The translations under genes and the position numbers were made by a program. Positions 11,020-58,654 of a stretch of 64,000 nucleotides of DNA are shown piece after piece. The stretch is from IMG/VR virus record IMGVR_UViG_3300028534_000019, positions 31,091-95,090 of that record; one strand, written 5' to 3'. How positions within the stretch are numbered: position 1 is the stretch's first letter; each line of letters opens with the position of its first letter. The DNA comes from a virus (taxonomy: Duplodnaviria; Heunggongvirae; Uroviricota; Caudoviricetes). The notes under the pieces were generated by a model, which worked only from the letters and a program-made list of their open reading frames with translations, made no database searches and was not told where the DNA came from.

Positions 11020-11538
11020 ATGCCAAAATTTGGTAAAAGAAGTAAAAGAAACTTAGAAACTTGTCATAGAGATTTAAGAATTATATGTAATGAAGCAATT
11101 AAATATTTTGATTTTTCTGTTATATATGGTATAAGAAGTGAAGAAGAACAATTTAAACTTTTTAATGAAGGCAAATCTCAACTTGATGGTATCCATAAAA
11201 AATCAAAACACCAAGGCAGAAAGTGTGAAAAACTTGATGCTGGTGTAGATGAAGAACACAAAATTTTAACAGATGAAGATGGTGATGCTATTGCTTCTTT
11301 TGCTGTTGATTTAATGCCTTACTATAAAGGTTTCAATCCTTTTACAAATGAGTCAGGAACTAAACTTTTTTATTACCAAGCAGGATTAATAATGGGGATA
11401 GCCGCTAGACTTTATGAAGAGGGAAAAATAAAACATACTTTAAGATGGGGTGGAAATTGGGATAATGATATGGACTTTTTCGGAGATTCTCATTTCTTTG
11501 ATTTACCACACTTTGAATTAGTAATACCTAAAAAATAG
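11020..11538 (+). CDS. Peptidase M15-family cell-wall hydrolase (putative endolysin)
   Basis: SKHQ...AVDLMPY...DLPHFEL gives the H...D...H zinc-ligand pattern of M15 peptidases. YGIRSEEEQFKLF is also typical of the family. Confidence 0.65.
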   Translation: MPKFGKRSKRNLETCHRDLRIICNEAIKYFDFSVIYGIRSEEEQFKLFNEGKSQLDGIHKKSKHQGRKCEKLDAGVDEEHKILTDEDGDAIASFAVDLMPYYKGFNPFTNESGTKLFYYQAGLIMGIAARLYEEGKIKHTLRWGGNWDNDMDFFGDSHFFDLPHFELVIPKK

Positions 11539-21769: not shown

Positions 21770-21785
21770 AAAGTAAAGGTAAAAA

Positions 21786-23236: not shown

Positions 23237-23245
23237 AGGAATAAT

Positions 23246-24100: not shown

Positions 24101-24380
24101 ATATTCAAAAGATGAAACAATAAAAACATTCTTAACACAAAATAAAGCAACTATAATTTATGATGGTATGTATAAACTTGTTTTTGATGATGGTGGTGTT
24201 ATGATAACAACTAAAACTTCTGATGAGATGTTTTCATTCTTAATTGGTTATAAGTATGCTAGTATGAATTATGAAAAGATTTTAGAGAGAATTAATACTG
24301 AACACAATAATATGGTAAAACAGTATGATGAACAAATGAACATTATGTCATCTATGGTTGAAGATAAAGAAGAAAATTAA
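24093..24380 (+). CDS. Hypothetical protein
   Basis: 95-codon ORF overlapping the upstream gene by 8 nt. Confidence 0.5.
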   Translation: MNRYSKDETIKTFLTQNKATIIYDGMYKLVFDDGGVMITTKTSDEMFSFLIGYKYASMNYEKILERINTEHNNMVKQYDEQMNIMSSMVEDKEEN

Positions 24381-24447
24381 TTTTAATTTTTAATTTTCTT
24401 TTAATATTAAAATGCTATAATTACATAATTAAAAAAGAAGGATATTT

Positions 24448-25548: not shown

Positions 25549-25549
25549 A

Positions 25550-26602: not shown

Positions 26603-26612
26603 CACATAAAAA

Positions 26613-26634
26613 TTAAGTAATATTACTATATAAT
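26613..26634 (+). promoter_or_regulatory. Promoter candidate (TTAAGT-N10-TATAAT)
   Basis: AAAATTAAGTAATATTACTATATAAT, 31 nt upstream of the ATG at 26665. Confidence 0.55.
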
Positions 26635-26664
26635 ATGACTTATTAAATATAATAAAGGAAAAAA

Positions 26665-27576: not shown

Positions 27577-27589
27577 AAAAGGATAAAAA

Positions 27590-27931
27590 TTGTTAAAATT
27601 ATGGTATAGAATTAAGTGTTTTTTTGGACACTGTTTAGAACTTGATATTATTAAAAGTAAGGAAGAAATTAGAAAAAGAGATTATGATGTTTCTAAAGCA
27701 CCTTATAAAGTTGAAGGTGTGGCTGAGGAATTTCCACAAGAATTTAAAGATATTCTTGAAAAGAAAGAAGATAAAGAAAATGAGTCTGAAAAAACAGAAA
27801 AACTTAAAAGGGCTTGGTTCAATAATGGAGTTGAACAAAGATTAGTTCAAATTCAACCTATTGATGAAAGTTTAAGTTTACCTGATGGATGGGTAAAAGG
27901 TAAATTAAAAAAAGGTATGAATAATGAGTAA
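27590..27931 (+). CDS. Hypothetical protein (TTG start)
   Basis: 113-codon ORF with AAAGGA upstream. K/E-rich. Confidence 0.45.
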   Translation: MLKLWYRIKCFFGHCLELDIIKSKEEIRKRDYDVSKAPYKVEGVAEEFPQEFKDILEKKEDKENESEKTEKLKRAWFNNGVEQRLVQIQPIDESLSLPDGWVKGKLKKGMNNE

Positions 27932-28136
27932 AAATAGATATGGTGTCAGAGACGCTTATAAAAATTTAGCAAACATCACAAAAACAATTAATACTCTTAG
28001 TGGTGAAGCCCTTGAAGAGGCAGAAAGAAAAATTTATCTTTATAGAGATTTTATTGATTATTCAAGAGATTTATACAATAATGGTTTGATAAATCAGAAA
28101 GAATTAAAAGGTTTAGGTAAGGTAGATAATGGATAA
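27924..28136 (+). CDS. Hypothetical protein
   Basis: 70-codon ORF overlapping the upstream gene by 8 nt. Confidence 0.5.
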   Translation: MSKNRYGVRDAYKNLANITKTINTLSGEALEEAERKIYLYRDFIDYSRDLYNNGLINQKELKGLGKVDNG

Positions 28137-28428
28137 TGTAAAACCAACAAGTGTATCTATTAATTTAGATGAACACTCAGTAAAAACAATTAAAAAAGTA
28201 AATAGCATACATAGAGATTCTTTAATCAATATTGGTATTGCTATGGTGGCAAAAACACCTTATTATAAAACATTATTAGGTGTAGAACAAGAAGATTTAG
28301 ATGAAGTAGCATCATTAGATATGTTAGATGAAGAAAATGAAACTACAACATCAAAAAAATCTAAAAAGAAAGAAGAAACTAAAACAGAAGTAAAAGCAAA
28401 ACCTACATCTTCTTGGGATAGTTTCTAA
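28129..28428 (+). CDS. Possible ribbon-helix-helix DNA-binding protein (ParR-like adaptor candidate)
   Basis: The N-terminus TSVSINLDEHSVKTIKKVNSIHRDSLINIGIAMV fits a beta-strand/helix/helix pattern. The tail is acidic then basic. Confidence 0.3.
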   Translation: MDNVKPTSVSINLDEHSVKTIKKVNSIHRDSLINIGIAMVAKTPYYKTLLGVEQEDLDEVASLDMLDEENETTTSKKSKKKEETKTEVKAKPTSSWDSF

Positions 28429-28442
28429 TAAAAGGAACAATT

Positions 28443-28889
28443 ATGATTTTAGATAAAATCACAAAAGAACAATTATTAGCAAGAAAGAATAGAGATACCT
28501 TTAAAACAGGTATCTTAACTACATTAATGTCAGAAGTATCTATTATAGGTAAGAATAAAGGTAATAGAAAAACAACTGATGAAGAAGCAATTGCTGTTAT
28601 AAAGAAATTTATTTCAAATGCTGAAAATAACATTGAATCTCTTCAAGGTTCTCATAATTGGGAAAATTGTACTGAAAGTATTCAAGAATTTCAAGATGAA
28701 ATAGAATTACTTCAAGGTTTTTTACCAAAACAAATGACCGAAGATGAGTTAAAAGTATCTATTGAAGTTATGGTTTCAAAAGGTGCTAACAATATTGGTG
28801 CTATTATGGGTACTCTTAAAAAAGAATATGGTGGATTATATGATGGCAAGATGGCTAGTAAACTAGCTAAAGAAGTTTTATCAAAATAA
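28443..28889 (+). CDS. GatB/YqeY-domain protein
   Basis: LLARKNRDTFKTGILTTLMSEV, TDEEAIAVIKKFISNAENNIE, FLPKQMTEDELK, IGAIMGTLKKEYGGLYDGKMASKLAKEVL. Confidence 0.65.
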   Translation: MILDKITKEQLLARKNRDTFKTGILTTLMSEVSIIGKNKGNRKTTDEEAIAVIKKFISNAENNIESLQGSHNWENCTESIQEFQDEIELLQGFLPKQMTEDELKVSIEVMVSKGANNIGAIMGTLKKEYGGLYDGKMASKLAKEVLSK

Positions 28890-28911
28890 TTAACATATTT
28901 TATGTTATAAT
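28890..28911 (+). promoter_or_regulatory. Promoter candidate (TTAACA-N10-TATAAT with TGn)
   Basis: TTAACATATTTTATGTTATAAT, upstream of thyX. Confidence 0.45.
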
Positions 28912-28940
28912 TCTAACATAAAAATAAAAAAAGGATATTA

Positions 28941-29846
28941 ATGACATTAGAAAAAGATGGTATATCTTACGAAAAACCGATAGTAACACTATTACAAGAT
29001 ACAGGTATAGGTGTAGCTGAATATGCCGCTAGAACTTGCTATGATAGTTTTAACAATAGTGAAAACACACTAATTAAAGAAGTTAATTACCAACTTGATT
29101 CTTATATAGGTCAAGACCATTATGATGAGTCATACAAAGATGATTTAAACAATATTGAAGATTCTGAATTGCTTAGTGATTTAGCTTGGGCATATCATCA
29201 CCATTCAATTTTAGAACATTCTAATCTATCTTTCTTAATTAAAGGTACTTCAAGAGGTGTACTTCAAGAACACGCTCGACATAGAATACAAGCAATTTCA
29301 GTAAGAAGTACAAGATATACAATGAGTGGTATTATTAATGCTTTTGTTGCTAGTAAATTTCATATTGGTTCAGAATTACAGTTTTTTACTGAAAAGTTAA
29401 TGAATATGGATATGTTTGTAACTACTGATGAAATGTATCAAAAAATTGAAATAGCAGGTATTTTTGATAAACTAAATTTTCAATATAATAACTGTAATGA
29501 ATTTTATGAGATGGCAGTTGCTAAATCTAGTATGAAATTTCTTGAAGCAAATGATAATCCTTATAATGCTTATGATATTTTTGAAAAACTTCAAAAAGGT
29601 AAGAAGAAAAGAAATGTTGGAGATGCTTTTAAACATATAGTTTCAGATAACTGGAAAGTAGATATGGTAGTGACTTTTAATATTAGAAGCCTTAAAAACT
29701 ACTTTACATTAAGAGATAGTGGTGCGGCATATTTTCAAATTAAGTGGTTAGCAGAAGAAATGAAAAAAGCAACACCTATTAAATACTTAAAACTTATTGA
29801 TAAAAAATATAGAGATGTTGATGTTAAAGGAATAGATAATGATTAG
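28941..29846 (+). CDS. thyX: Flavin-dependent thymidylate synthase ThyX
   Basis: ThyX signature HARHRIQAISVRSTRY (RHRxxSxxxxSxR) and LEHSNLSFLIKGTSRGV. Confidence 0.85.
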   Translation: MTLEKDGISYEKPIVTLLQDTGIGVAEYAARTCYDSFNNSENTLIKEVNYQLDSYIGQDHYDESYKDDLNNIEDSELLSDLAWAYHHHSILEHSNLSFLIKGTSRGVLQEHARHRIQAISVRSTRYTMSGIINAFVASKFHIGSELQFFTEKLMNMDMFVTTDEMYQKIEIAGIFDKLNFQYNNCNEFYEMAVAKSSMKFLEANDNPYNAYDIFEKLQKGKKKRNVGDAFKHIVSDNWKVDMVVTFNIRSLKNYFTLRDSGAAYFQIKWLAEEMKKATPIKYLKLIDKKYRDVDVKGIDND

Positions 29847-44579: not shown

Positions 44580-44794
44580 TGACAAATATTCAAAAAATTA
44601 AATTTGATGCTAAATTTAGTGTTTCATATATGAATGGAAAATATGTTATTTCAGGTTTTAATCATACTTATTCTTTACATATAAAAGATAGATGTGATGA
44701 ATTAAATTATTTCATTGAAGATTATGAATTATGGAATTTAAGAGAAAAAGAATGGGAAGACCTTGTAAATACAATTAAGAAAGAGGGATTTTAA
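44579..44794 (+). CDS. Hypothetical protein
   Basis: The ATG at 44579 overlaps the methyltransferase stop (TAATG) and is preferred to the GTG at 44570. Confidence 0.45.
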   Translation: MTNIQKIKFDAKFSVSYMNGKYVISGFNHTYSLHIKDRCDELNYFIEDYELWNLREKEWEDLVNTIKKEGF

Positions 44795-45411
44795 ATCTCT
44801 CCTGATTGTATTTTACTTAATAAACTAGCTGTATCGCCAATAAAATTATTCTGAATATTAACAGTTTTTTCATCATTTTGTTTTTCTAATTCATAAGCAT
44901 TTAAAAATTTCTTAACTTTAAGTTGTGTTTCAGCAACAGTAGAATAACTATCCATCAATAACTTCATACTTGTAACATTACCTTTTTTAAGTTCAGCATA
45001 TGCCATTAAAACACTACCTGAAACCTCTTCAGAGTGTGATACAGCTAAATCCTTACCTAACTTAGATAAAATCTCTTTCGTCGTCTGTATATCTTCTCTT
45101 AGTGCTTGTTTAACTATATCAAAATCAGTTAATAATTCATCACTCTTTACAATACTTGCTAATGTATCACTATCATTTAAAACAGGAACTTGTTTTATTT
45201 TCTCATCTATTTCTTGTTTTCTTTTTTTAAGATTATCTTCAAGACCATCAGCCTCTAATTCAAAAGCGTCTAACAAACCTAAAAATTTATTTGCTTCTTC
45301 TAATTCTTTAGAAACCTTTTCATTTACATCTTCTATAATTTCTATTTCATCAGTATTATCAGTTGATTTATTTTCTGTAAAATCTATATTATTTTCTTCT
45401 ATATTAGACAT
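44791..45411 (-). CDS. Hypothetical acidic protein (last gene of the minus-strand tail operon)
   Basis: 206-codon ORF downstream of the gp15-like gene. Convergent with the plus-strand genes. Confidence 0.6.
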   Translation of the reverse strand: MSNIEENNIDFTENKSTDNTDEIEIIEDVNEKVSKELEEANKFLGLLDAFELEADGLEDNLKKRKQEIDEKIKQVPVLNDSDTLASIVKSDELLTDFDIVKQALREDIQTTKEILSKLGKDLAVSHSEEVSGSVLMAYAELKKGNVTSMKLLMDSYSTVAETQLKVKKFLNAYELEKQNDEKTVNIQNNFIGDTASLLSKIQSGEI

Positions 45412-45434
45412 TTAAAACCTTTTTTATTATTTTT

Positions 45435-46223
45435 TTATTCATTTGGATGTGTTATAGTTGTTTTAGCATTATCTATGTTATAATCATCTTCATCTACTTG
45501 TTTTGAATTAATAAAACCTGATAATTCCTCTATCTCATATACTTCACTTTTGTAATTTATTTCAGTTGTAACAGCAGTAGTATAAATTTCAACCTCTTTA
45601 ATAATGTGTGCTTCTTTTATAGGTAAGTATAAATTACCCTTAACAGTTATCGGTACTGAAATTTCAACAAGATATATTTCATCATCATTTGGTTCAGGTA
45701 ATTCAATATCAAAATCACCTAATTGTACTTGTATAGATGTAGGTTCTTCTTGTATATCTAATTCATTAATTTTTAATGTGTAATCAGGTCTAAATAATGG
45801 TGCTATCTGTTCAATGATTATAGTAGCATCAGAAAATGTTTTTGTAGCAATATGTAAAGTAAATTCAAAATCATAAGCAACAGAATTTTTATGAAATAAT
45901 CTTGTAATATCTTCTTTACTTAAATTATCTTTTGATGTTCTGTTTACAATAGAATTTTTATTTGTATTTCTATTTAATGCTTTATTTAAGCCATTAAATT
46001 CTAAAGCCATTCTTGGTAATACATTAACATTACCATTATTAATATTTTCTATATCATAATCACTCAACATAAAAGCAATATTTCTATTCCCAAATTTTAT
46101 AGGTACTTTTGTATCTGAAATTCTTTTACCTGTATTATCAAATCTTGGTACACTAATATCATTAAATAAATCTATCAAAGCAATAGTATAATTTTTAGTT
46201 GAGTTGTGGTAAAAGTAGTTCAT
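45435..46223 (-). CDS. 15: Tail sheath stabiliser / tail completion protein (T4 gp15-like)
   Basis: MNYFYHNSTKNYTIALIDLFNDISVPRF...KVPIKFGNRN...VLPRMALEF parallels T4 gp15 MFGYFYNSSFRRYATLMGDLFSNIQIKR...RVPITYASKE...ILPRINLHL, from memory. Confidence 0.7.
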   Translation of the reverse strand: MNYFYHNSTKNYTIALIDLFNDISVPRFDNTGKRISDTKVPIKFGNRNIAFMLSDYDIENINNGNVNVLPRMALEFNGLNKALNRNTNKNSIVNRTSKDNLSKEDITRLFHKNSVAYDFEFTLHIATKTFSDATIIIEQIAPLFRPDYTLKINELDIQEEPTSIQVQLGDFDIELPEPNDDEIYLVEISVPITVKGNLYLPIKEAHIIKEVEIYTTAVTTEINYKSEVYEIEELSGFINSKQVDEDDYNIDNAKTTITHPNE

Positions 46224-46259
46224 AATTTTCCTTGTTAAAATATGTTATTTTATATTAAT

Positions 46260-46283
46260 ATTCTTAGGAAAAATCCTAAGAAT
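46260..46283 (-). terminator. Hairpin between the tube and gp15-like genes (attenuator/terminator candidate)
   Basis: ATTCTTAGGA / TCCTAAGAAT form a 10-bp perfect stem with a 4-nt loop. Confidence 0.45.
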
Positions 46284-46289
46284 AATTTT

Positions 46290-46814
46290 TTACATTTTAA
46301 TCCAGTGAGTAAATGCAAAATCAACAGTAAACTCAGTTACCATATCATTACTTTCATCAGCCATATCAATAGAACTGATATTAGTCGGCCAAAGGTTTCT
46401 AAATTGATAAGTAAGTTTTACACTATTATCTCTTGTATCTAATTGTTGAATTTGTGCTGTTTCAGTCATATAAGAAGCATTAGTAGTAACTTTTCTTTTA
46501 TGATTTTCCATATCATCAATAAATACCAACCAATCATCAAATAATTTTCTTAATTCGTGGTCTTGTGTGTTGTAAAATGTTAAAGACCAAGTATTTTCAT
46601 AAGCCGCATCACCTGCAATTATAAGTTTTCTACCTTGTGTCCAAACCTCAATTTGCCCAATAGATTTAGCTGGTATCGGCCCGCCCTTACAAAGAGTATC
46701 TATCTTTTTATCATCTTTTGGTCCGACAGGAGCCGCCAACATAACTCTATATTTATTTGCTCTTGCACCTAAACCAAGAGTACTTTTTAATTCTTGTACT
46801 TTACTAGAAGCCAT
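46290..46814 (-). CDS. 19: Tail tube protein (T4 gp19-like), paralogue 1
   Basis: GARANKYRV, FDDWLVF and NLWPTNISSIDMADESNDMVTEFTVDFAFTHW parallel T4 gp19 ...GLWPTNVGELQLDWDSNNEIQTFEVTLALDYWE. Confidence 0.85.
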   Translation of the reverse strand: MASSKVQELKSTLGLGARANKYRVMLAAPVGPKDDKKIDTLCKGGPIPAKSIGQIEVWTQGRKLIIAGDAAYENTWSLTFYNTQDHELRKLFDDWLVFIDDMENHKRKVTTNASYMTETAQIQQLDTRDNSVKLTYQFRNLWPTNISSIDMADESNDMVTEFTVDFAFTHWIKM

Positions 46815-46864
46815 AACTTCCTCCTTTTTTTAATCTTAATACAAAATTTGTACTAATTCTTATT

Positions 46865-46872
46865 TATTTATA
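46865..46872 (-). promoter_or_regulatory. T4-type late promoter box TATAAATA (minus strand)
   Basis: The plus strand reads TATTTATA, 51 nt upstream of the tube paralogue 1 ATG. AAAGGAGG RBS. Confidence 0.4.
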
Positions 46873-46886
46873 TATGGTATTTTTTA

Positions 46887-47399
46887 TCAATCCCAATGTG
46901 AATAATTAAATGTAACAGTAAACTCTAACAACCCTTCTGTATCATCACTATAAGTAGATTCAGATAATGCTTTAGGATATAAATCATATATTGTATATGT
47001 AGCCATTGGTGAGTTATCTTTTGTGCTTAATTGTTGTAAAACAGCATCAGTCATATAACTTGGTGCTGATGAAGCACTTCTATTATTTGTATTAAAATCA
47101 TCTATAAAATTCATCCAAGCTAAAAATGCTTTTCTTAATGTATGCTGTTCTGTATCAACAAATGTTAAATCCCAAGTTCCTGTAAAAAGTGTTTCACCAG
47201 CGATAGTTAATTTTTTACCTTGTACATATACTTCTACATCAGCAAATTCTTTACCAGGAATATTAGCACCTTTAACTAATGTATTAACTATATTATTACC
47301 CGGCCCGCCACCTTTTGAATTAAGAATTAGTTTATATCTATTTGACCTAGCACCTATACCAAGTGTATTTTTTAGATTTTGAATTGTACTATTTGCCAT
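46887..47399 (-). CDS. 19: Tail tube protein (gp19-like), paralogue 2
   Basis: Clearly alignable to paralogue 1 (MANSTIQNLKNTLGIGARSNRYKL..., ...DLYPKALSESTYSDDTEGLLEFTVTFNYSHWD). Confidence 0.85.
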   Translation of the reverse strand: MANSTIQNLKNTLGIGARSNRYKLILNSKGGGPGNNIVNTLVKGANIPGKEFADVEVYVQGKKLTIAGETLFTGTWDLTFVDTEQHTLRKAFLAWMNFIDDFNTNNRSASSAPSYMTDAVLQQLSTKDNSPMATYTIYDLYPKALSESTYSDDTEGLLEFTVTFNYSHWD

Positions 47400-47410
47400 T
47401 ATATATCCTT

Positions 47411-47923
47411 TTAAAATGTTTCAATATATGATGCTTTGGCTGTTATACTAAATTCAGCTATTGAAGCACCAGCACTATTATCTAAAGTCGGCCCGCCTAC
47501 TGTAACTAAAATACAATCTTTGAATTTAATAATATCTTGAAAGGTATTAATATCAAAGTCAGTGGCAGTTTGAACTAATATATCAAACCTTTGGTTTTTA
47601 GGGTATTCTCTTGAAAATTTTTGTGAAGCACTTGACCACATTCTATATAGTGTAAAATTTTCTAAATCTTTCATAGTAACAGTAACTTGAAAATTTTCTA
47701 ATCTACCCACTGCAAATCTCCATTCCTCAGCTACCCATTCCTCAATAGGTGATGAATTAACCTCAGCTAACTGTATATTAGTTATAGCGGCCGTCAGTGT
47801 ATCAGGGTCAACTGTAATAGCACCAGCGGCTGTTCCACCTGTTGGTAATATCATAACCTTAAATTTAGAGGGGTCTTGCCATCTAATAGACTTAGCAAGT
47901 TGTATAGGTGCTGATAAAGCCAT
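47411..47923 (-). CDS. Divergent tail-tube-fold protein, paralogue 3 (tube or tube-initiator-like)
   Basis: Same size and position as the tube genes. Starts MALSAP..., using the third in-frame ATG, which is preceded by GGAG. Shares a weak FKV...W...F.VTV pattern. Confidence 0.5.
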   Translation of the reverse strand: MALSAPIQLAKSIRWQDPSKFKVMILPTGGTAAGAITVDPDTLTAAITNIQLAEVNSSPIEEWVAEEWRFAVGRLENFQVTVTMKDLENFTLYRMWSSASQKFSREYPKNQRFDILVQTATDFDINTFQDIIKFKDCILVTVGGPTLDNSAGASIAEFSITAKASYIETF

Positions 47924-47937
47924 AAGCATCTCCATAT

Positions 47938-47964: not shown

Positions 47965-48654
47965 ATGGCTTTAGTATATAAAGAAGAATATAAAAATATA
48001 GCTAAAATAGGTGGTAAAGAAATTCATTTTAAACCGTGGAATACAAAAAATGAAAAAGAATTTTTAATTGCTGTTGAATCTGATGAAGATATTACAGATT
48101 CAATGCTATATGAATTATTAGTTAAACCTTGTATAAAAGAACAAGATATTGTACTTGATGAATACGAACAAAAATTACTTATGATTGAAATGAGGAAAAA
48201 ATCTATTGGTAGTACTTTCCCATTGAGTTACAAATGTTCTAATTGTAAAAATCTTAATGAGATTGAAGTAGAATTAGATGATATTATTAAATATAATGAA
48301 CCAAAATATGATGAGGTTACCGTAGAAGATATAACTATATCTTTTGGAGTTCCAAGAACTGAAAAATTAATCAAAAGACTTGATGAAGTTGATACAAAAG
48401 TAGAAAAAACTTTTTATAATTTTTTAATACATATAAACTATATTATTATTGATGGTGTTAAAGAAGATACATTTAGTTTTGAGGAGTTAAAAGATTATAT
48501 TGAAAGTTTACCAACATCTATTTTTGATGAATTTTATGAAAAATATAGTGCTATGAGTCCTAATTTAAGGTTTGAGTTAGACCAATATTGTATGTTTTGT
48601 AATGAGAAAAATCAGATTAATCTTGAAGGAATCCCAAATTTTTTATGGGCATAA
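47965..48654 (+). CDS. 26: Baseplate hub assembly protein (T4 gp26-like) with zinc ribbon, paralogue 1
   Basis: HFKPWNTKNEKEFL...LLMIEMRKKSIGS...YKCSNCKN...CMFCNEKN, ending IPNFLWA. This resembles the T4_baseplate (gp26) pattern from memory. Confidence 0.5.
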   Translation: MALVYKEEYKNIAKIGGKEIHFKPWNTKNEKEFLIAVESDEDITDSMLYELLVKPCIKEQDIVLDEYEQKLLMIEMRKKSIGSTFPLSYKCSNCKNLNEIEVELDDIIKYNEPKYDEVTVEDITISFGVPRTEKLIKRLDEVDTKVEKTFYNFLIHINYIIIDGVKEDTFSFEELKDYIESLPTSIFDEFYEKYSAMSPNLRFELDQYCMFCNEKNQINLEGIPNFLWA

Positions 48655-48844: not shown

Positions 48845-48916
48845 TATTTAATTTAAAGAATAAAGAACCATTATGTCATTAAAGACTCAATGATAAATAT
48901 AAACAAAAGGAAAATT

Positions 48917-49618
48917 ATGGCTTTACAATATAAGCAATCGTATAATAATATCTCTAAAATAGGAGATAAAGAAATTCATTTTAGACCTTGGAGTGCTAAA
49001 GATGAAAGACTTTATTTGAAGTTAATTGAAAAAACTGAAAATATAACAGAAGAAGATTTTTATAACACTTTAATAAAACCTTGTATAGAAGAAAAAGATT
49101 TAGTTTTAAGTCAAGCAGAACAAAAGAAACTATTACTAGATATTAGAATTAAATCAATTTCTGAATTTATTGAAGATGATATTGTATGTGAAGAATGTGA
49201 AGAAATCACTAAAATCAAAGTTAAAATAGAAGACTGTTTAACTTATATACCAAATACATTTAAACCAATTAAAATAGATGATATAGAGATTGAATTTGAT
49301 AAACCAAAAACAATGAAAGATTATTTTAATGTAACTGAGGGTGAAAGTGTCGTAGATTATATCTATGATATGTTTTTGCTACATATAAGTAAAATAAAAA
49401 TGGTTAGTGAAGATGGTGAAAAAGTTTATGATGATATTTCTATTCAAGATAAAGAAGATTTTATAAATTCATTACCTAGTAAGATGTTTGATGAATTTTT
49501 TGAAAAATTTCAAGAAATGCTAGATGAAACAAAAATAACCTATAAGTTTACTTGTCCTAAATGTAAACACAAACAAGAAACAGACTACAATTTTATACCT
49601 AACCTTCTTTGGGTATAA
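48917..49618 (+). CDS. 26: gp26-like hub assembly protein, paralogue 2
   Basis: MALQYKQSYNNISKIGDKEIHFRPWSAKDERLYL... is alignable to 47965-48654. Cys pairs CEECEE / CPKCKH, ending IPNLLWV. The ATG at 48917 (RBS AAAGGA) is preferred to 48890. Confidence 0.5.
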   Translation: MALQYKQSYNNISKIGDKEIHFRPWSAKDERLYLKLIEKTENITEEDFYNTLIKPCIEEKDLVLSQAEQKKLLLDIRIKSISEFIEDDIVCEECEEITKIKVKIEDCLTYIPNTFKPIKIDDIEIEFDKPKTMKDYFNVTEGESVVDYIYDMFLLHISKIKMVSEDGEKVYDDISIQDKEDFINSLPSKMFDEFFEKFQEMLDETKITYKFTCPKCKHKQETDYNFIPNLLWV

Positions 49619-49692: not shown

Positions 49693-52600
49693 ATGAGTGC
49701 TAACAAAAGAACTAATAAAAGAAAAACTTTTAAAAAACCTACATTAATAACTTTACCAAAAATAAAAGGTAGTGATTATAGAAATAAAGATAATTATGAA
49801 GAACCTAATGGTTTTAAAGAAAAAAAATCTAAACCATCATCTTTATTTGCTAAAATGGCTCAAGATTTAGCTAAGGTTAAAAAAGAGAATGAAGAATTAA
49901 ATAATAAACTTGAAAAAATTTATGAAGTTCAAAAAAACTCTAATGCTCAGATAATCAAAAACCAACAACAAAGTATAGATATACAGCACGACCAAATGGA
50001 ACAACAAAGAGAGGCTGAATATAAAAAAGAACATTCTTATGCTAAAAAAGTAAAAGAAAAAATAGTTTATATTAAAGAAAAAACTAAAGATTCTTTATCA
50101 AATGCTGGTGGAAAAATCAAGAATGGTTTTAATAAAGTAAAACAGAAAACATCAGGTTTTTTTGATTTTATAAAGAAAGCAGCGGGAATAGCATTATTTT
50201 TAAAACTTTTTTGGCCGGTGATTAAAAAGAAAGTGATACCTTATGTTAAAGATACACTAATACCTCAAATTAAAGATTTTTTAAATAATAAAGTAATACC
50301 ATTTTTTAAAGATACTGTAATACCCGGCTTAGAGAAATTTTTCAAAGATACACTTTGGCCGATGATAAAAAACAATTTTGGTGATATTTTAAAAGGGTTA
50401 GGTATAACAGCATTTTTGTTAAATCCTGTTAAATTTATAACAACAGCAATAAAATTGGCTTTTAAAACTACTTTTTTTGGAATTAAACAAATAGTAAAAT
50501 TATTACCTAAACTAGCAGGTTTTTTAAAATCACCAGCAAAATATTTAGCAACAAAAGGGTTAGATTTAGCTAAACAAGGTGCTACTAAGGTTTCTGATTT
50601 AGCTAAACAAGGTGCTACTAAGGTTTCTGATTTAGCTAAACAAGGTGCTACTAAGGTTTCTGATTTAGCTAGAGATGGAGTTGATGCTGTTTCTGATTTT
50701 ACAAAAAATGATAGTATAAGTGATATGGCTGAAAATGGTTATGATAAATTAAAAGACTCTAAAGGAAGTGGTGGTTTATTAGAAAAAATTAATAAAAAAA
50801 TTGATTCTATGAAAGAAAAAATAACAAAAATTTCAGGGTCTTTGATAGATAAAGGAATTGGTTTAGCTAAAAAATTACCATCAAGTTTTGGTGCCGCACT
50901 GAAAATGTTAAAACCACTAGCAAAACTTATTCCATTTTTAGGAACAGCATTAATGGTGTGGGATGTTATAGATTTATTTTTCCCTAATTTAACAAGTAAA
51001 CTCACAGAATTTTTTAGTTGGAAGAATATTAAAGAAATGGCTTCAAGTATATGGGAAAAAGTTAAAGAAGTATTTGGTAGTGTTTCTAAATGGATAAGTG
51101 ATAAATTTAGTGGTATAATTTCAAGTGTAAGAAAAATGGTAGGTAAATTATTTTTAATGAGTCCTATGACTGCATTGTTACCTGATTCTATTAAGAAAAA
51201 AGTATATAATTTTATTGTAGGAGATGATAAAGAAGCTAAAAAAGAAGAAAAATCTTCAGCTATGTTTAAAAAAGGTTATGCTAATGATGATTGGGGTGAT
51301 AATAGTATAAATGAACAAAAGATTAAAAAAGATTTAAAAACAGGTAAAATTAATATTAAAGATTTAGAAGCATTGTTACAATATGGGAATTTAGATGAAG
51401 ATGAACAAGATAAATTAAAGAAAATAATTTCTTCTAATACTAAAACTAAAAAAACTAAAAAAACTTTAGGTAATGTTTCATCTATTAGTAATACTACTGA
51501 TGTTAAAAAACCTCTAACAAAAGAACAAAAACAAGATAATTATATTAAATCTATGGATGCCCAAATTGGAGCATTTACAAAAACAAGAGATAAAATTAAA
51601 ACAGCACTTGATAATAAAGATTTAAGTCCTAAGAAAAGAAAAGGTTTAGAGAAAGCATTATCTTATTATGATACACTTATCAAGAAGAAACAAGAAAAGA
51701 AACAAAGTTTAGTAAAACATAAAAAACATAAAAAACCTACAAGAACATCAGAATCATCATATATGATGGCTGATGGGAAAGGTGGGAAAGTTCCAATAAC
51801 TAAAGAGCAACACGACAGAATGGATGCCATTCAAAATAAAATTTCTGTTGCTTTTGATGGTGGAAACAGTGAAGAAATAGATAAATTACTTAAAGAACAA
51901 GAAGATTTAAGAGCAACAATAATTAAAGAAGGATTTAAACCTTCACAAAGTATAAGTATTTCTAATACTTCTAGTAGTTCTAGTACAACAAATAATTCTT
52001 TTGGTAATGTTAGTAATGTTAGTAATGTAGGTAATACTTTTTTATCAGCAAAACCTAATACTGCTCAAAGTGTAGCAAATCCAAGTGAGTCTGAAACACC
52101 AAAAACAGATGGTTTTTTTACTTCTCAAATGAAACCTAGTTTTGATACAAAACCAAAAGATGTAAGTACAAGTGGTTTTAATCAATCACAAAGTAATGAT
52201 TTAGATGATAAAGAAAGAAAACAATTAAAAATGGAAAAAATACCTGCTAAAAAAATATTCAAATTAACAGGTAGTGCTTCAAGTGGTGGTTTTGAAAAAA
52301 TGAATAAATCATTACAACATAATGTTAAATTATTTGGTATGGAATATGCTGAAAAAACAGGAGAAAAACTAACTATTAATTCAGCATATAGAAGTGTTAA
52401 ATTACAAAAAAAATTATTTGAAAATAAGAAAAAAGAAGTAAGAAAAAAACACCCTGAATGGTCAGATAGTCAAGTTCTTAGGGAAACAAGAAGATGGGTA
52501 GCACCTCCAGGGAGAAGCGCACACAATTCAGGTTTAGCAATTGATATAGGTTATCAAAATAGAAAATCTCCATCAATGGATAAAGCAGATAGATTAGGTT

Positions 52601-53952
52601 TATTATCAAAATATGGTTTAACAAGGATGTTACCAAACGAGCCTTGGCATATTACACCATCAAGTTTAACAAAAACTGATTTAAAATCAGTTGCTAATGA
52701 AATAGAACAAGATGTAAAAGATGGTAATTTTACAGAAGATAATATTACAAAAGGAGTATATTTAGCTAAAGCAACAGGTTCTACAATATCAGATATGGAT
52801 GAGCCTGAATTACCAAGTACTTTAGCAAATTCTTTAACACAACCTAAAGAACAAAGTATAACTATACCTAATACAAGTAATGTAGCTAATACAAGTAATG
52901 TAGCTAATACAAGTAATGTAGCTAATACAAGTAATGTAGCTAATACAAGTAATGTAGCTAATACAAGTAATGTTAAAAATAAAAAAAATAAGTTTAAAGA
53001 ACTTGTTAAAAAAATTGATGGGTCAATAGTTTATGCTCAAAGAGGATTAAAAGATTTTGGTATAACTTCTCTTAATCCATCAGATATGGGAGAAGCAAAA
53101 AATAGTGGTGGTTTTGTTGGTAATGAGTCATTATATGATAAACAGGATTCTTTATATACTGATATGTTAAAAAGTCAAAAGGCTCAAAATAATATTGTAA
53201 AAGATTCTTATAATGCTTATAGTACAGTGGATGGTGCTATTAAAACTGAAAATGTACCTGATGGGTATGAAATATATACAACAGATGGTGGTGTATCTAC
53301 ATTAATTAAGAAACCTTTAGAAGATAGCAAGAATAATAAACCTATGGCTAAAGAAGTTGTAAAACAAGAACAACAAATACAACATAAACCTATGGCTAAA
53401 GAAGTTGTAAAACAAGAACAAAATCAAAGTGTATATAAAAAAGGGTTGAGTAAATTTGGTAAAATACTATCTAATCCATTTGAAAGTTTAGGTAATGGAA
53501 TAGAAAAAGTTGTTAGTAAAACACAAGATTTTGGTAACAAAGTTAAAGATGTATTAACTGATAATCCTATTGTTAATAAAGAGAAAGAAATAATAGATAA
53601 TGTTAGTGGTAGTATAAGTGGAATTTTTGGTGGAGTTGAGAATCATTTTGATGATATGAGTTCAAAAATTAAAGGTAAAGATAATATTAATTTATTAAAT
53701 GATAATAAATCATATTCTAAAGCACCTTTACAAAAAGCAAAAGTTAAAAAAACTTCAGCACCAAAAATAGATATTGATAATGTAGCCAAAAAACTATTAG
53801 CATCAAATAAAACAGAAACTAAACAAGTAAAAGATGAAAATAAAGCACCTATAATAATTAATCAGTCATCAGGTGGTGTTAGAAATGATGATGTTTCATT
53901 ACACGAAATAAAACCAAAACAAGATATGTTTGGTATTATGGAGATGTTATAA
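49693..53952 (+). CDS. Tail tape measure / tail length determinator (gp29-like role) with an embedded M15 peptidase domain
   Basis: 1419 aa, K/E-rich and helical, with hydrophobic segments near aa 160-270, internal tandem repeats, and a position between the hub chaperones and the baseplate genes. Confidence 0.75.
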   Translation: MSANKRTNKRKTFKKPTLITLPKIKGSDYRNKDNYEEPNGFKEKKSKPSSLFAKMAQDLAKVKKENEELNNKLEKIYEVQKNSNAQIIKNQQQSIDIQHDQMEQQREAEYKKEHSYAKKVKEKIVYIKEKTKDSLSNAGGKIKNGFNKVKQKTSGFFDFIKKAAGIALFLKLFWPVIKKKVIPYVKDTLIPQIKDFLNNKVIPFFKDTVIPGLEKFFKDTLWPMIKNNFGDILKGLGITAFLLNPVKFITTAIKLAFKTTFFGIKQIVKLLPKLAGFLKSPAKYLATKGLDLAKQGATKVSDLAKQGATKVSDLAKQGATKVSDLARDGVDAVSDFTKNDSISDMAENGYDKLKDSKGSGGLLEKINKKIDSMKEKITKISGSLIDKGIGLAKKLPSSFGAALKMLKPLAKLIPFLGTALMVWDVIDLFFPNLTSKLTEFFSWKNIKEMASSIWEKVKEVFGSVSKWISDKFSGIISSVRKMVGKLFLMSPMTALLPDSIKKKVYNFIVGDDKEAKKEEKSSAMFKKGYANDDWGDNSINEQKIKKDLKTGKINIKDLEALLQYGNLDEDEQDKLKKIISSNTKTKKTKKTLGNVSSISNTTDVKKPLTKEQKQDNYIKSMDAQIGAFTKTRDKIKTALDNKDLSPKKRKGLEKALSYYDTLIKKKQEKKQSLVKHKKHKKPTRTSESSYMMADGKGGKVPITKEQHDRMDAIQNKISVAFDGGNSEEIDKLLKEQEDLRATIIKEGFKPSQSISISNTSSSSSTTNNSFGNVSNVSNVGNTFLSAKPNTAQSVANPSESETPKTDGFFTSQMKPSFDTKPKDVSTSGFNQSQSNDLDDKERKQLKMEKIPAKKIFKLTGSASSGGFEKMNKSLQHNVKLFGMEYAEKTGEKLTINSAYRSVKLQKKLFENKKKEVRKKHPEWSDSQVLRETRRWVAPPGRSAHNSGLAIDIGYQNRKSPSMDKADRLGLLSKYGLTRMLPNEPWHITPSSLTKTDLKSVANEIEQDVKDGNFTEDNITKGVYLAKATGSTISDMDEPELPSTLANSLTQPKEQSITIPNTSNVANTSNVANTSNVANTSNVANTSNVANTSNVKNKKNKFKELVKKIDGSIVYAQRGLKDFGITSLNPSDMGEAKNSGGFVGNESLYDKQDSLYTDMLKSQKAQNNIVKDSYNAYSTVDGAIKTENVPDGYEIYTTDGGVSTLIKKPLEDSKNNKPMAKEVVKQEQQIQHKPMAKEVVKQEQNQSVYKKGLSKFGKILSNPFESLGNGIEKVVSKTQDFGNKVKDVLTDNPIVNKEKEIIDNVSGSISGIFGGVENHFDDMSSKIKGKDNINLLNDNKSYSKAPLQKAKVKKTSAPKIDIDNVAKKLLASNKTETKQVKDENKAPIIINQSSGGVRNDDVSLHEIKPKQDMFGIMEML
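50563..50661 (+). repeat. Perfect 33-nt tandem repeat x3 inside the tape measure (DLAKQGATKVS)
   Basis: GATTTAGCTAAACAAGGTGCTACTAAGGTTTCT starts at 50563, 50596 and 50629. A degenerate fourth unit follows (DLARDGVDAVS). Confidence 0.95.
52370..52660 (+). other. VanY/M15B-like peptidoglycan peptidase domain within the tape measure
   Basis: INSAYRSVKLQKKLF, WVAPPGRSAHNSGLAIDIGY and NEPWHITP give the SxYRS...PGxSxHxxGxAxD...WH pattern. Confidence 0.7.
52870..52974 (+). repeat. Perfect 18-nt tandem repeat x5 plus a partial sixth unit (NTSNVA) inside the tape measure
   Basis: AATACAAGTAATGTAGCT starts at 52870, 52888, 52906, 52924 and 52942. The sixth unit diverges to ...GTTAAA. Confidence 0.95.
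53338..53421 (+). repeat. 36-nt direct repeat x2 with a 12-nt spacer (KPMAKEVVKQEQ) inside the tape measure
   Basis: AAACCTATGGCTAAAGAAGTTGTAAAACAAGAACAA occurs at 53338-53373 and 53386-53421. Confidence 0.9.
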
Positions 53953-53975: not shown

Positions 53976-54686
53976 ATGATTTATCCATTAAATTTATTTA
54001 CACCAGACCCTATAACAAATAGCCTTAGACCATTTATGATGTTCTCAGCAAAAGAAGTCAATTTTAATGCTATGAGGGCTAAATCGTGGTCTGATGCTAA
54101 GGAAACATTATCAACAAAAATGATATTTGCTTTACCTATACCAAATACAGGTATTATGGATTCATTCCAAAATGAATATGGCAGTGAACCATCAGTTGGT
54201 GGTTTACTTGCTCAGAAAGCCCAAGATACTTTTAATGCACTTCCGGGTGCCGCTGGAATTTCATCAGCATCAGCAAGATTAGGCTTTGTTGCCGACCCTA
54301 AATATACTCAACTATACAAAGGTTCTTCACCTAGAAGTTGGAGTGGTACTTGGCAAATTGTTCCTGAATCATTAGGAGAATCACTTGTTGCTCATATGAT
54401 GTTAAGAGCAATTAAATATTGTGCCGCACCTGATAAAAAATCTGATGCTAGTAATAAAATAGGTGTATTAATACAGCCTTATGTTTTTTCAATAACAATT
54501 TCTAATCCTTTAATAGATAGAGCAGTAAAATTTGATAAAATGGTGATGAAATCTTATGATATTACTTATTATGCTCAAGGTTATGCTAGTTCTTATAAAG
54601 ATATGTTTCCAAAACAAATATCTTTATCATTAAAATTTGAAGAATTTGGAATTAAAACTAGAAAAGATTGGGGAAAACCTTTCTAA
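53976..54686 (+). CDS. Tail/baseplate protein (possibly a gp48/gp54-like tube cap or initiator)
   Basis: Positioned directly after the tape measure. FALPIPNTGIMDSFQNEYGSE is a weak resemblance only. Confidence 0.4.
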   Translation: MIYPLNLFTPDPITNSLRPFMMFSAKEVNFNAMRAKSWSDAKETLSTKMIFALPIPNTGIMDSFQNEYGSEPSVGGLLAQKAQDTFNALPGAAGISSASARLGFVADPKYTQLYKGSSPRSWSGTWQIVPESLGESLVAHMMLRAIKYCAAPDKKSDASNKIGVLIQPYVFSITISNPLIDRAVKFDKMVMKSYDITYYAQGYASSYKDMFPKQISLSLKFEEFGIKTRKDWGKPF

Positions 54687-56364: not shown

Positions 56365-57435
56365 ATGAATGATATAATGTATAATAAGAGTAATTTAAAC
56401 TCAACTAAAATTTTTTATAGAGCAGTAATAGAAAATAGAGTTGACCCTAAAAAACTTGGTAGATGTCAAGTTAGAATATTAGGAATACACTCCGAAGAAG
56501 CCACAGGAGATAAAGTTCCAAAGGAGAACCTACCTTGGGCTGAGTTGATAGGAAGCAACGGTTATAACGGAGGTATGAGTGGTATAGGTATTAGTGCTGT
56601 ACCTGAGCAAGGTTCTTGGGTATGGGTATTCTTAGAAGATGGTGATTGGAATAAACCTATTATAGTAGGTACAATATATGGTATATCATCAATGTTAAGC
56701 CCCGGCACTAACCCCGGTTTTCACGACCCTGATGTACAATTTCCTTATGCTGATAGACTTAATGAGCCTGATTTTAATAGATTAGCAAGAAATGAAAAAG
56801 TAAATGAAACAATAATTATTACAATCAAGGATGCTAATAGAGATAAATCAATACCAACATCAACTGGTAAATTATGGGATGAATTGAAAGAAACTACTAC
56901 TTTAGCAGAATACCCAAATAATAGAGTGATAGAAACAAGACACCATTCTTATATAGAACTTGATGATACTGATGGTAATGAAAGATACCATTATATTCAT
57001 AAAACAGGAACTTATAGAGAAATAGTAGAAACAGGTGATGAAACAAACAAAGTAATAAGAGATAAGTACCTAATAGTTGATAGAAATCTTAAAGAATTAA
57101 TAAAGGGTAATATGTGGACTACTGTTTATGGTGATAATGAAGATTATGTACAAGGTTATAGAGAGATACTTGTTTCAGATTATCAACACGAAATAGTTGA
57201 AAAACATCTTAAAGAAGAATATATGGACTATAAAGAAGAAGATGTGCATAAATATCTAAAAGAGCATTATCATAGCACCAAAGATGAAACAGTTGATGGT
57301 ATGCTAACAGAGAAATATAATAGTACAAAAACAGAAACAGTGTCAGGTTTAGTAAGTGAGAGTTATAATTCAGGACAAACAACAGATGGCGGGCCGTTTA
57401 TACAAATAACAGCAGGTGTTATAACTCTTAACTAA
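56365..57435 (+). CDS. 5: Baseplate central spike (gp5 / gpV-like OB-fold plus beta-helix), no lysozyme domain
   Basis: FYRAVIENRVDPKKLGRCQVRILGIH...LPWAELIG...VPEQGSWVWVFLEDGDWNKPIIVGTIYG. The C-terminus has 8-residue-type repeats (KDETVDGMLTEKYNSTKTETVSGLVSESY). Confidence 0.85.
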   Translation: MNDIMYNKSNLNSTKIFYRAVIENRVDPKKLGRCQVRILGIHSEEATGDKVPKENLPWAELIGSNGYNGGMSGIGISAVPEQGSWVWVFLEDGDWNKPIIVGTIYGISSMLSPGTNPGFHDPDVQFPYADRLNEPDFNRLARNEKVNETIIITIKDANRDKSIPTSTGKLWDELKETTTLAEYPNNRVIETRHHSYIELDDTDGNERYHYIHKTGTYREIVETGDETNKVIRDKYLIVDRNLKELIKGNMWTTVYGDNEDYVQGYREILVSDYQHEIVEKHLKEEYMDYKEEDVHKYLKEHYHSTKDETVDGMLTEKYNSTKTETVSGLVSESYNSGQTTDGGPFIQITAGVITLN

Positions 57436-57446: not shown

Positions 57447-58292
57447 ATGGAATTAAAAGTAAAAGATTTTATTATAGATAAAAATATACCATTAGCACTA
57501 ATAGAAAATCCTGTTAAGGCAACGGCTTGTGCTGTAAAAGGTATGAAATTATATGAAGAAAGTAAAATTTTAAAAAGTTTGTTTAATATAGGAAGAATAA
57601 AATTAAGAGTTTTAAAACCAATATTAGAAGGACTTTTATTAATTGAAACTGTTAAAAATTTATCAGTAGTATTACCAAGTCCAACTAAGATTACAGAAGT
57701 AAATGCTAATGCTAGTATAAATTTACCTGAATGTTTGGTTGGTAAAAAAGTAACAGCAGTTGCTAATAAAATAAATAATTCTACATCAAAAGCAAGTGTT
57801 AGTGTAGAAATTAAGAATAATATTGATATAATGTCAGTAACAGCAGAAGATTATATAAACAAAACTGTTTCAGGGATTGTTAATAGTGTATATTTACCAT
57901 TCTTTTATTTACTTGATGAGTATAGATGGTTTATTCAAAAAACTGAGTTTGCTAAACTTTATAAAGAATGGAAAGAAGATTATAGTTGTTTTGTTAATAA
58001 TTGCGAACCACTAAAAGATATTGTAACAGATGATTCTTATATGTGGGAAGATAATAGAAGTCAATTTATTTTACCAATTGATATTAATTCAGGAAAATTA
58101 AGACTTTGGAAGATATTAGGAAATCCTAGTGAAACAACAAAAGATAAATGTTATGAAATAGAAAAAGAATATTATGATTTTACACAAAAAAGAAAAGAAT
58201 TAGCTCAACAAGGTAAGAAAATATTATATGAAAAAGGAATACCTGATGAAATAAACCCTTTTATAGAACTAATAAATAAATATAAAATATAA
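57447..58292 (+). CDS. Hypothetical baseplate-cluster protein
   Basis: 281-codon ORF between the spike and gp25-like genes. Confidence 0.55.
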   Translation: MELKVKDFIIDKNIPLALIENPVKATACAVKGMKLYEESKILKSLFNIGRIKLRVLKPILEGLLLIETVKNLSVVLPSPTKITEVNANASINLPECLVGKKVTAVANKINNSTSKASVSVEIKNNIDIMSVTAEDYINKTVSGIVNSVYLPFFYLLDEYRWFIQKTEFAKLYKEWKEDYSCFVNNCEPLKDIVTDDSYMWEDNRSQFILPIDINSGKLRLWKILGNPSETTKDKCYEIEKEYYDFTQKRKELAQQGKKILYEKGIPDEINPFIELINKYKI

Positions 58293-58303: not shown

Positions 58304-58654
58304 ATGAGATATGTTGATATTAATAATAATTTAAAGTTAGATAAAGATTATAAAGCAGTAGAAAATTCTGTACATAATATATTATCAACAAGAAAAGGTT
58401 CAGTGCCAGGAGTTCCAAATTTTGGAAGTAATTTATATTCTATTGTTTTCAATCAACTAGACCCAATTATAGAAACAACAATAAAAAATGAAATAGTAGA
58501 AGCATTAGAATATTGGGAACCGAGAATTGATATTAAACATATAAATATCATTGAAGATGAAGATTATAACAGACTAAAAGTGTTCATAGGTTATGAGATA
58601 TTATATGATGTAATACAAAAAGAATATGAATATCTGTTTGTAATTAACAAATAA
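58304..58654 (+). CDS. 25: Baseplate wedge protein (gp25 / gpW-like)
   Basis: VENSVHNILSTRKGSVPGVPNFGSNLYSIVFNQLD...IKNEIVEALEYWEPRIDI is the GPW_gp25 signature. Confidence 0.85.
   Translation: MRYVDINNNLKLDKDYKAVENSVHNILSTRKGSVPGVPNFGSNLYSIVFNQLDPIIETTIKNEIVEALEYWEPRIDIKHINIIEDEDYNRLKVFIGYEILYDVIQKEYEYLFVINK

Follow-up and report, generated by a model that had tools for sequence, protein, structure and literature searches.

A VanY/LdcB-type peptidase domain within the long protein at the tape measure position of a T4-like phage with a lysozyme-less gp5 spike

We analyzed a 64,000-nt stretch of the IMG/VR virus record IMGVR_UViG_3300028534_000019 (positions 31,091 to 95,090 of the record; hereafter the window, to which all statements on the absence of genes from this phage apply), with attention to an open reading frame (ORF) of 1419 amino acids (aa) in its tail gene module. 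The source of the window is a distant, AT-rich (26% GC) T4-like myovirus. Two gp26-like genes precede the long ORF, which is followed by a gp48-like gene and then by homologs of gp5, gp25 and gp6 (Table 1). With respect to the T4 order 26-51-27-28-29-48-54, the long ORF occupies the slot of gene 29, which encodes the tape measure, directly 5' of gp48. Its product, referred to here as the long protein, begins with a region that is probably helical. Low-complexity linkers, a VanY-like peptidase and a variable C-terminal half follow, and a conserved hydrophobic tail closes the protein. The embedded peptidase and its coexistence with a gp5-like spike devoid of lysozyme are the subject of this work.

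A sequence-only reading of this DNA had pointed to an M15B/VanY zinc peptidase signature at about nt 52370-52660 of the 1419-aa ORF, and this observation was confirmed. The motif strings were located as INSAYRS, starting at residue 894 (nt 52372), then PPGRSAHNSGLAIDIGY, and EPWHITP, extending up to residue 989 (nt 52659). Pfam assigned residues 872-959 to VanY (PF02557) with an E value of 3.9e-13 and 49.8 bits, the gathering cut-off being 25, and a phmmer search against PDB retrieved the D,D-carboxypeptidase VanYB (6a6a, 5zhf, 5hnm) at E ~1e-6, with the SxYR, SxHxxGxAxD and ExxH motifs of the domain aligned residue-for-residue. The residues that mark these LAS-type zinc peptidases were all present: zinc ligands in the pattern H-x6-D with a further H toward the C terminus, the ExxH Glu for catalysis and the SxYR Arg. 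An AlphaFold2 (AF2) model of residues 834-1003 had a predicted local distance difference test (pLDDT) score of 85.4 and a predicted template modeling score (pTM) of 0.75. In a Foldseek comparison of this model with PDB, the top 23 hits were all M15B/D enzymes (VanYB, LdcB, VanXYc, DacB and VanX), with E values from 4e-6 to 2e-2, probabilities of 0.99-1.0 and template modeling (TM) scores of ~0.5-0.6. Since the profile search supports an M15 fold and the metal ligands are conserved, we regard the M15B domain as real, and judging from its residues it looks catalytically competent. On the same kind of data, the domain is not a vancomycin-resistance VanY despite having the same fold, as the NCBIfam VanY-B/G model NF000473 gave 36.2 bits, far below its cut-off of 400.

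Relatives of the domain were collected by an exhaustive HMMER search of a library of 1.84 billion proteins, which was used instead of a word-indexed protein search because the latter missed known relatives (two hits for the full long protein and one for the domain). The HMMER search yielded 710 proteins at E≤1e-3. In an alignment of 144 relatives, R900, Q905, S942, H944 and D951 were invariant (144/144), E983 and H986 were found in 136, the exceptions being mostly gaps, and the five catalytic or metal-binding residues (R900, H944, D951, E983 and H986) occurred together in 135. Location within a large protein is common among these relatives, as 88 of the 142 best ones are at least 600 aa long. 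The closest entries of the viral structure library BFVD were likewise "putative peptidase" or "internal virion" proteins of 600-1285 aa, with an 878-aa protein of Vibrio phage Va1 as top match; they also included the VanY protein of Campylobacter phage NCTC12673, an "internal virion protein" of a podovirus and, from uncultured sources, proteins of 608-1187 aa named "Peptidase M15B". The gene as a whole had no megablast match in 50,697 phage records, and tblastn with the N-terminal 536 aa of the protein gave no match either. Residues 1-1200 served as the query for a representative library. Across an alignment of three orthologs of the long protein, the peptidase was the best-conserved block.

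Table 1. Position of the long ORF, its internal features, its neighbors and a second M15 gene in the window.
Feature	Coordinates	Strand	Evidence or remark
Long protein, 1419 aa, ATG start	49693..53952	+	ORF call; gp29 (tape measure) position
Conserved N-terminal region, aa ~60-480	49870..51132	+	Common to at least 16 orthologs; phmmer of aa 60-480 vs retrieved proteins, E 1e-55 to 1e-9
Hydrophobic segment 1, aa 155-182, candidate membrane-interacting helix	50155..50238	+	Kyte-Doolittle, 19-residue window ≥1.2; conserved in ortholog alignments
Hydrophobic segment 2, aa 232-257	50386..50463	+	Kyte-Doolittle; G235, L236, G237, P245 conserved
Perfect 33-nt tandem repeat x3.3, 11-aa unit LAKQGATKVSD	50563..50671	+	TRF, 100% matches, score 218
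Hydrophobic segment 3, aa 405-433	50905..50991	+	Kyte-Doolittle maximum 1.79; L406-K411, P414-G417, W423, D424 invariant
Ser/Thr/Asn-rich low-complexity linker, aa ~752-785, 5' of peptidase	51946..52047	+	Translation; short tandem repeats 51955-51986, 52004-52028
M15B (VanY/LdcB-like) zinc peptidase domain, aa ~845-993	52225..52671	+	Pfam, PDB sequence hits, AF2, Foldseek PDB and BFVD, residue conservation
Key codon R900	52390-52392	+	
Key codon H944	52522-52524	+	
Key codon D951	52543-52545	+	
Key codon E983	52639-52641	+	
Key codon H986	52648-52650	+	
Perfect 18-nt tandem repeat x5.9, (NTSNVA)6, linker 3' of peptidase	52868..52973	+	TRF, 100% matches, score 212
C-terminal tail, last ~35 aa, ..APIIINQ..VSLHEIKPKQDMFGIMEML	53845..53949	+	Pattern ..TIIxx..LxLxNTxFxDxxLSLVGGII kept among 17 orthologs
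gp26-like baseplate hub protein, paralog 1	47965..48654	+	PF12322 E 4.7e-29; phrog_150
gp26-like baseplate hub protein, paralog 2	48890..49618	+	PF12322 E 5.9e-27
gp48-like baseplate tail tube cap, directly 3' of long ORF	53976..54686	+	phrog_230 E 2.3e-16
gp5-like central spike, 356 aa, OB fold and beta-helix, without lysozyme domain	56365..57435	+	Gp5_OB E 3.6e-14; phrog_430
281-aa ORF between gp5 and gp25	57447-58292	+	No hit in Pfam, PHROGs, NCBIfam
gp25-like baseplate wedge or sheath initiator	58304..58654	+	PF04965 E 2.9e-16
Free M15C-type (L-Ala-D-Glu peptidase-like) protein, 172 aa, likely endolysin	11020..11538	+	phrog_465, PDB matches, phage homologs

The identity of the enzyme module was found to vary among orthologs of the long protein. 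Nine of the at least 16 proteins that share the N-terminal region carry VanY. According to Pfam, the ortholog P0006 has a GH24 Phage_lysozyme domain, P0023 an NlpC/P60 domain and P0004 only LysM, and no recognisable hydrolase was present in P0011, P0024 or P0045. No Pfam hit was obtained for P0012 and P0013, in which a lysozyme-like motif noticed by eye was not confirmed by Pfam, NCBIfam or PDB. Further modules were added in some long VanY proteins, namely GH19 in P0020 and SLT in P0029. As far as can be judged from the sequences, this swapping of modules at one locus provides good comparative evidence that the job of the module would be to act on peptidoglycan.

The gp5-like spike of the window matched phrog_430, annotated "baseplate hub subunit and tail lysozyme", with an E value of 2e-63. 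Its residues 17-163 aligned with T4 gp5 residues 10-156, corresponding to the oligonucleotide/oligosaccharide-binding (OB) fold, and its residues 160-258 aligned with T4 residues 365-462, corresponding to the beta-helix (E 2.7e-9). Because the query coordinates are contiguous across this gap, the lysozyme domain of T4 gp5 (~157-364, ~200 residues) has no counterpart in the spike. Searches by tblastn against T4-type gp5 genes gave two-piece matches separated by ~1.4-1.7 kb in the subject, no lysozyme Pfam family was found in the spike, and its match to Pfam Gp5_trimer_C was sub-threshold (23.4 vs 30.9 bits). The description of a 356-aa spike that retains the OB fold and the beta-helix and has no lysozyme, already given in the sequence-only reading, is thereby borne out, and the comparison with related phages extends it: the spikes encoded beside orthologs of the long protein measure 274-480 aa and none contains a lysozyme, and lysozyme-less gp5 proteins are also found in Campylobacter phages (260 aa), in Vibrio phage Va1 (335 aa) and in KVP40-like phages (413 aa). 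Going by these alignments and profile scans, a gp5 without lysozyme is the rule across the clade as well as in the Campylobacter, Va1 and KVP40-like phages. The inverse pairing, a long protein without hydrolase beside a spike with lysozyme, was tested at the metagenomic locus L007 and rejected, as the extra length of the 480-aa spike at this locus corresponds to beta-helix repeats.

The same reading had also proposed that the spike lost its lysozyme and that the wall-piercing activity seemingly moved from it to the tape measure; spelled out, an ancestral gp5 lysozyme would have been lost and its task relocated as a compensation. In favor of this proposal, a lysozyme-less spike coexists with a hydrolase in the long protein in the window, at the metagenomic loci L001, L002 and L008, in the Campylobacter phage NCTC12673 and in Va1. 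However, at L007 the long protein is P0011, which has no hydrolase, and it stands beside the lysozyme-less 480-aa spike; as this locus has neither enzyme, the hydrolase of the long protein is not a simple compensation for a missing spike lysozyme. Moreover, in KVP40-like phages the lysozyme-less gp5 is paired with an ordinary gp29 of 656 aa. As to the direction of the change, the T4 lysozyme forms an insert that separates the OB domain from the beta-helix and might have been gained in the Tevenvirinae; a lineage-specific insertion in T4 gp5 is at least as likely. With lysozyme-less spikes found clade-wide, loss followed by relocation is not supported, and we consider it very unlikely.

In addition to the embedded domain, the window encodes a free M15 protein (ORF 11020), which matched phrog_465 ("endolysin") with an E value of 1e-30 and, in PDB, the L-alanyl-D-glutamate endopeptidases 8q2g (6e-5) and 2mxz (2e-3; T5 type). 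Its homologs occur in 523 phage records under the names M15 peptidase, L-Ala-D-Glu peptidase or endolysin, and its score against Pfam Peptidase_M15_4 was sub-threshold (15.1 bits vs a cut-off of 25). Between its candidate metal ligands H63 and D96 there is an acidic insertion of ~30 aa, CEKLDAGVDEEHKILTDEDGDAIAS, and the phage homologs are ~30 aa shorter at this place. By these matches ORF 11020 belongs to M15C and not to the VanY subfamily, and it is likely the endolysin. The earlier suggestion of a second M15 peptidase acting as endolysin therefore stands with regard to the family and remains plausible with regard to the role, with the subfamily being M15C. No lysis cassette was found beside this gene, and none of the 77 other window ORFs of at least 50 aa matched lysozyme, transglycosylase, amidase or peptidase families of Pfam at E≤1e-3.

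These data bear on whether the VanY-like domain opens the wall at all. Its closest solved structures are the D,D-/L,D-carboxypeptidases VanYB, LdcB and DacB, and RefSeq names the NCTC12673 homolog "endolysin", so the domain might instead be a carboxypeptidase that remodels peptide stems, for instance by shortening penta- or tetrapeptides so as to alter cross-linking or exclude superinfecting phages, or else an enzyme of the lysis stage; phage-made carboxypeptidases have been described as rare (PMC6116005). Against such roles, the domain forms part of a 1419-aa protein of the baseplate hub module and lies outside any lysis cassette, the phage has an M15C peptidase of the endolysin type besides, and the domain is not a VanY resistance equivalog. 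In addition, GH24 and NlpC/P60 replace VanY at the same place in orthologs, and GH19 or SLT are added elsewhere, which argues for a role in breaching the wall. A remodeling or lysis function is thus regarded as unlikely.

The name tape measure, as applied to the long protein in the sequence-only reading, was a positional call without the backing of sequence homology. What speaks for it is the gene order, together with the size of the protein, its repeats and hydrophobic segments, and the elimination of other candidates in a complete related genome; the part of it that failed is homology to gp29 or to its Pfam family. The order of genes around the long ORF was conserved in six metagenomic relatives (L001, L002, L007, L008, L009 and L010) and in Va1. 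In the tail module of the window no other long unassigned structural ORF was found, and the annotation of the complete 135-kb genome of NCTC12673 names no tape measure; within its hub module, the ORF of the VanY protein alone is both long and unassigned. The long protein also has traits typical of tape measure proteins, namely three conserved hydrophobic segments, an 11-aa tandem repeat, the conserved hydrophobic C-terminal tail and an N-terminus modeled with low confidence as all-helical. The N-terminal region is marked by the motifs EEQ.EAEY, FWP.IK and LKPLAK.IPFLG..VWD..FFP, and its third hydrophobic segment is both the most hydrophobic of the three and the site of the best-conserved motif of this region. 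In an AF2 model of residues 1-560, DSSP assigned almost everything to helix, yet the pLDDT was only 38.9, too poor for a fold search. Taken together, we find it probable that the long protein is the equivalent of the tape measure.

The two perfect repeats of the long ORF (50563-50671 and 52868-52973) resemble recent expansions and could render the long protein length-polymorphic. The tandem duplication of the gp26-like gene (PF12322) is kept in L001, L002, L007 and L010, and one of the copies may be the equivalent of gp51 or gp28.

As a whole, the data lead us to favor, with somewhat less assurance than the positional assignment, that the long protein serves as tape measure, resides in the tail tube until it is ejected, and doubles as a virion-associated lysin. 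The identity, fold and conserved catalytic residues of the domain, the gene order, the lack of a lysozyme in the spike and the swapping of modules are shown here, and from them we infer its location in the virion, its function as a ruler, its ejection into the periplasm, its enzymatic activity, the kind of bond cut (as by a D,D-/L,D-carboxypeptidase or by an endopeptidase) and its insertion in the membrane. According to this proposal, upon contraction of the sheath the lysozyme-free gp5 spike, made of OB fold and beta-helix, would mechanically breach the outer membrane. The long protein, whose hydrophobic C-terminal tail probably docks in the gp27/gp5 hub, would then leave the lumen of the tube for the periplasm, where the peptidase module would locally cut or trim the stem peptides of murein. 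Subsequently, the hydrophobic segments would engage the inner membrane and help to form a conduit for the DNA. At the end of the infection, lysis would be carried out by the separate M15C peptidase encoded by ORF 11020.

Several observations weigh against this reading. No match to Pfam T4_Tape_measure (PF25671) was detected in the long protein, T4 gp29 itself scoring 1389 bits, and hhalign comparisons of its N- and C-terminal regions with gp29 from T4 and from two KVP40-like phages gave probabilities of at most 2% (1.8% with the 3-sequence profile and 1.5% with the 17-sequence profile). The orthologs measure from 763 to 1753 aa, a 2.3-fold range, beside otherwise conserved tail genes, and for this reason a ruler acting through its whole length is hard to reconcile with the data. 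The model of the N-terminal region is of low confidence, as indicated above, and a folded domain of ~150 aa fits poorly in the lumen of a tail tube. VanY and LdcB, the prototypes of the domain, are carboxypeptidases, which shorten stem peptides without opening the sacculus. Finally, the hydrolase is perhaps dispensable, because P0011, without one, is still paired with a lysozyme-less spike.

The lack of homology to gp29 and the range of ortholog lengths beside conserved neighbors also speak for a different role, in which the long protein would be ejected as hub or "pilot" cargo that carries a wall hydrolase, like phiKZ gp181 and the internal virion proteins of podoviruses, and would not determine tail length. 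Either the gene of the true ruler would then lie beyond the window, or the conserved N-terminal ~500 aa of the long protein alone would measure the tail. In the same direction, the variable middle and C-terminal half behave as swappable cargo, and Rhizobium phage RHph_I20, with a genome of 41.8 kb, has a related VanY domain in a protein of 1285 aa named "putative internal virion protein". However, the long gene lies exactly in the gene 29 slot, directly before gp48, and neither the tail module of the window nor the complete NCTC12673 genome offers another long unassigned structural ORF for the task. The 11-aa repeats and the hydrophobic segments are features that tape measure proteins typically show, and these proteins diverge fast, so missing homology is weak evidence. 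We therefore hold a role as mere cargo to be doubtful, and retain as our preferred reading that of a tape measure and ejection protein with a putative enzymatic function at entry.

A more general and much more tentative proposal is that, in a large and mostly uncultured clade of T4-like phages outside the Tevenvirinae, the protein at the gp29 position is a modular tape measure that carries cargo. Its middle part would be a site where enzymes tuned to the peptidoglycan of the host are swapped (VanY, GH24, NlpC/P60, GH19, SLT, LysM or none), and its length would be uncoupled from that of the tail. If this is true, an ejected tube protein and not the spike would breach the wall in these T4-like phages, and a simple ruler model would fail for them. 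In contractile-tail phages beyond the T4 core group, a protein that resides in the tube probably brings the wall-cutting enzyme, as in many siphoviruses. The swapping of modules among orthologs would make this family a compact source of entry-associated lysins suited to different cell walls, and the family also constitutes a testable case of the drift of tape measure length away from tail length. In terms of annotation, the results correct names that look transferred, both for gp5 proteins called "tail lysozyme" that have no lysozyme and for long VanY proteins called "endolysin" or "putative peptidase" that are encoded at the tape measure position. None of these findings overturns current understanding.

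Other features of the window deserve mention. The 281-aa ORF after gp5 is matched in position at L002, L007 and L008, where gp5 is likewise followed by a gene, the size of which varies (216-328 aa). Upstream of the gp26-like genes, a block of five ORFs of 170-262 aa (44791-47935) is encoded on the minus strand of an otherwise plus-strand window, with a flip of the GC skew, and matching blocks in relatives encode tail tube paralogs of the Phage_TTP_2/gp19-like type. The window also contains a complete trans-translation pair, formed by tmRNA (39452-39772, +; tag peptide ANNTDYTGNTVLSA) and SmpB (16602-17051, +; PF01668, E 1.7e-38). The set of chaperones is unusually rich for a phage, with two full-length Hsp70/DnaK homologs (18640-20490 and 39844-41706, +; E 1.7e-230 and 4e-141) plus a protein with a DnaJ domain encoded within 15359-29846. 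Auxiliary genes were placed for NADAR (18057-18569), YqeY (28443-28889) and an RlaP nucleotidyltransferase (24448-25548), and Pfam hits within positions 1-45000 of the window included Sir2, ThyX, SPFH/Band 7, ClpP, actin-like ALP_N and the head domain of poly(A)/CCA polymerases, as well as a MoxR-like AAA_5 ATPase with a DUF2201 metallopeptidase/VWA protein.

We compared the window with known systems in which wall-degrading enzymes are carried by phage tails. Virion-associated lysins frequently occur as domains within tape measure proteins (PMC6116005), and in mycobacteriophage TM4 a motif of the tape measure was shown experimentally to aid the infection of stationary-phase cells (PMC1796659). 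The siphovirus proteins with hydrolase modules (motif 3 of TM4 Tmp, T5 Pb2 and the tape measure muramidase of phiIPLA35) embody the same concept as the long protein, a wall-degrading module within the protein that sets tail length, acting at DNA entry. They differ from it in belonging to non-contractile tails, in contrast to the T4-like contractile tail with its gp5 spike, and in the enzyme families used; their activity and infection phenotype come from experiment, whereas the window is known from its sequence. The bacterial enzymes VanY, LdcB and DacB (MEROPS M15B) share with the domain the fold, the zinc ligands (H-x6-D...H), the catalytic Glu and the substrate Arg, but they are free-standing proteins of ~200 aa, secreted or anchored to the membrane, whereas the domain of the window lies within a structural protein of a phage. 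With T4 the window shares the hub set of gp26, gp48, gp5 (OB fold and beta-helix), gp25 and gp6, and the same overall infection machine; the differences are that T4 has a GH24 lysozyme inserted in gp5 and a gp29 of 590 aa without enzyme domain, to which the long protein has no sequence homology.

Closer counterparts were found in two groups of cultured phages. For these comparisons, L012 corresponds to NC_015464 (NCTC12673), L004 to Va3 and L003 to a KVP40-like phage. Gene 25 of NCTC12673 (Fletchervirus, Eucampyvirinae) encodes gp024, an 887-aa "putative peptidase" with homologs in ~30 Campylobacter phages; in RefSeq it is named "endolysin" (NC_015464, 16787-19450), an annotation that looks like name transfer. 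Like the long protein, gp024 has an internal VanY domain (PF02557, E 7e-8), which is 27% identical to that of the window and has all the motifs, and it is encoded in the baseplate hub module of an AT-rich, distantly T4-like genome, five genes 5' of the 260-aa gp5 without lysozyme. Unlike it, gp024 has 887 instead of 1419 aa, lacks an insert of ~20 aa in the domain (residues 912-934 of the window protein) and has one gp26-like gene upstream instead of two. Outside the peptidase the similarity between both proteins was not significant, and the separate endolysin of NCTC12673 is unrelated to ORF 11020. Names of the "tail lysozyme" type, for which transfer is likely, are carried by the gp5 of NCTC12673 (260 aa; NC_015464, 23150-23932) and of Va3 (405 aa; L004, 8974-10191); the gp5 proteins of NCTC12673 and of the KVP40-like phage had no lysozyme domain in our scan, of which Va3 gp5 was not part. 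One paper on a Campylobacter phage infers a tail lysozyme from the name of gp5 alone (PMC3322345), and our literature searches turned up no paper presenting the VanY protein of the Campylobacter or Vibrio phages as a tape measure.

In Vibrio phage Va1 (MK387337; relatives phiKT1024, pv27 and SRILMA), the corresponding protein is Va1_278, an 878-aa "putative peptidase". It is shorter than the long protein, its host is a gammaproteobacterium, and outside the peptidase its similarity to the long protein was marginal and not significant (hhalign probability 27%). Nevertheless, its gene is flanked by a gp51/26-like gene and by that of the gp48 tail tube cap, its VanY-like domain is 33% identical over 130 aa to that of the window, and the 335-aa gp5-like protein of the same phage, without lysozyme, is 38% identical to the spike of the window. 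The arrangement of a peptidase inside the long protein together with a lysozyme-less spike is, in short, already present, poorly annotated, in cultured Campylobacter and Vibrio phages.

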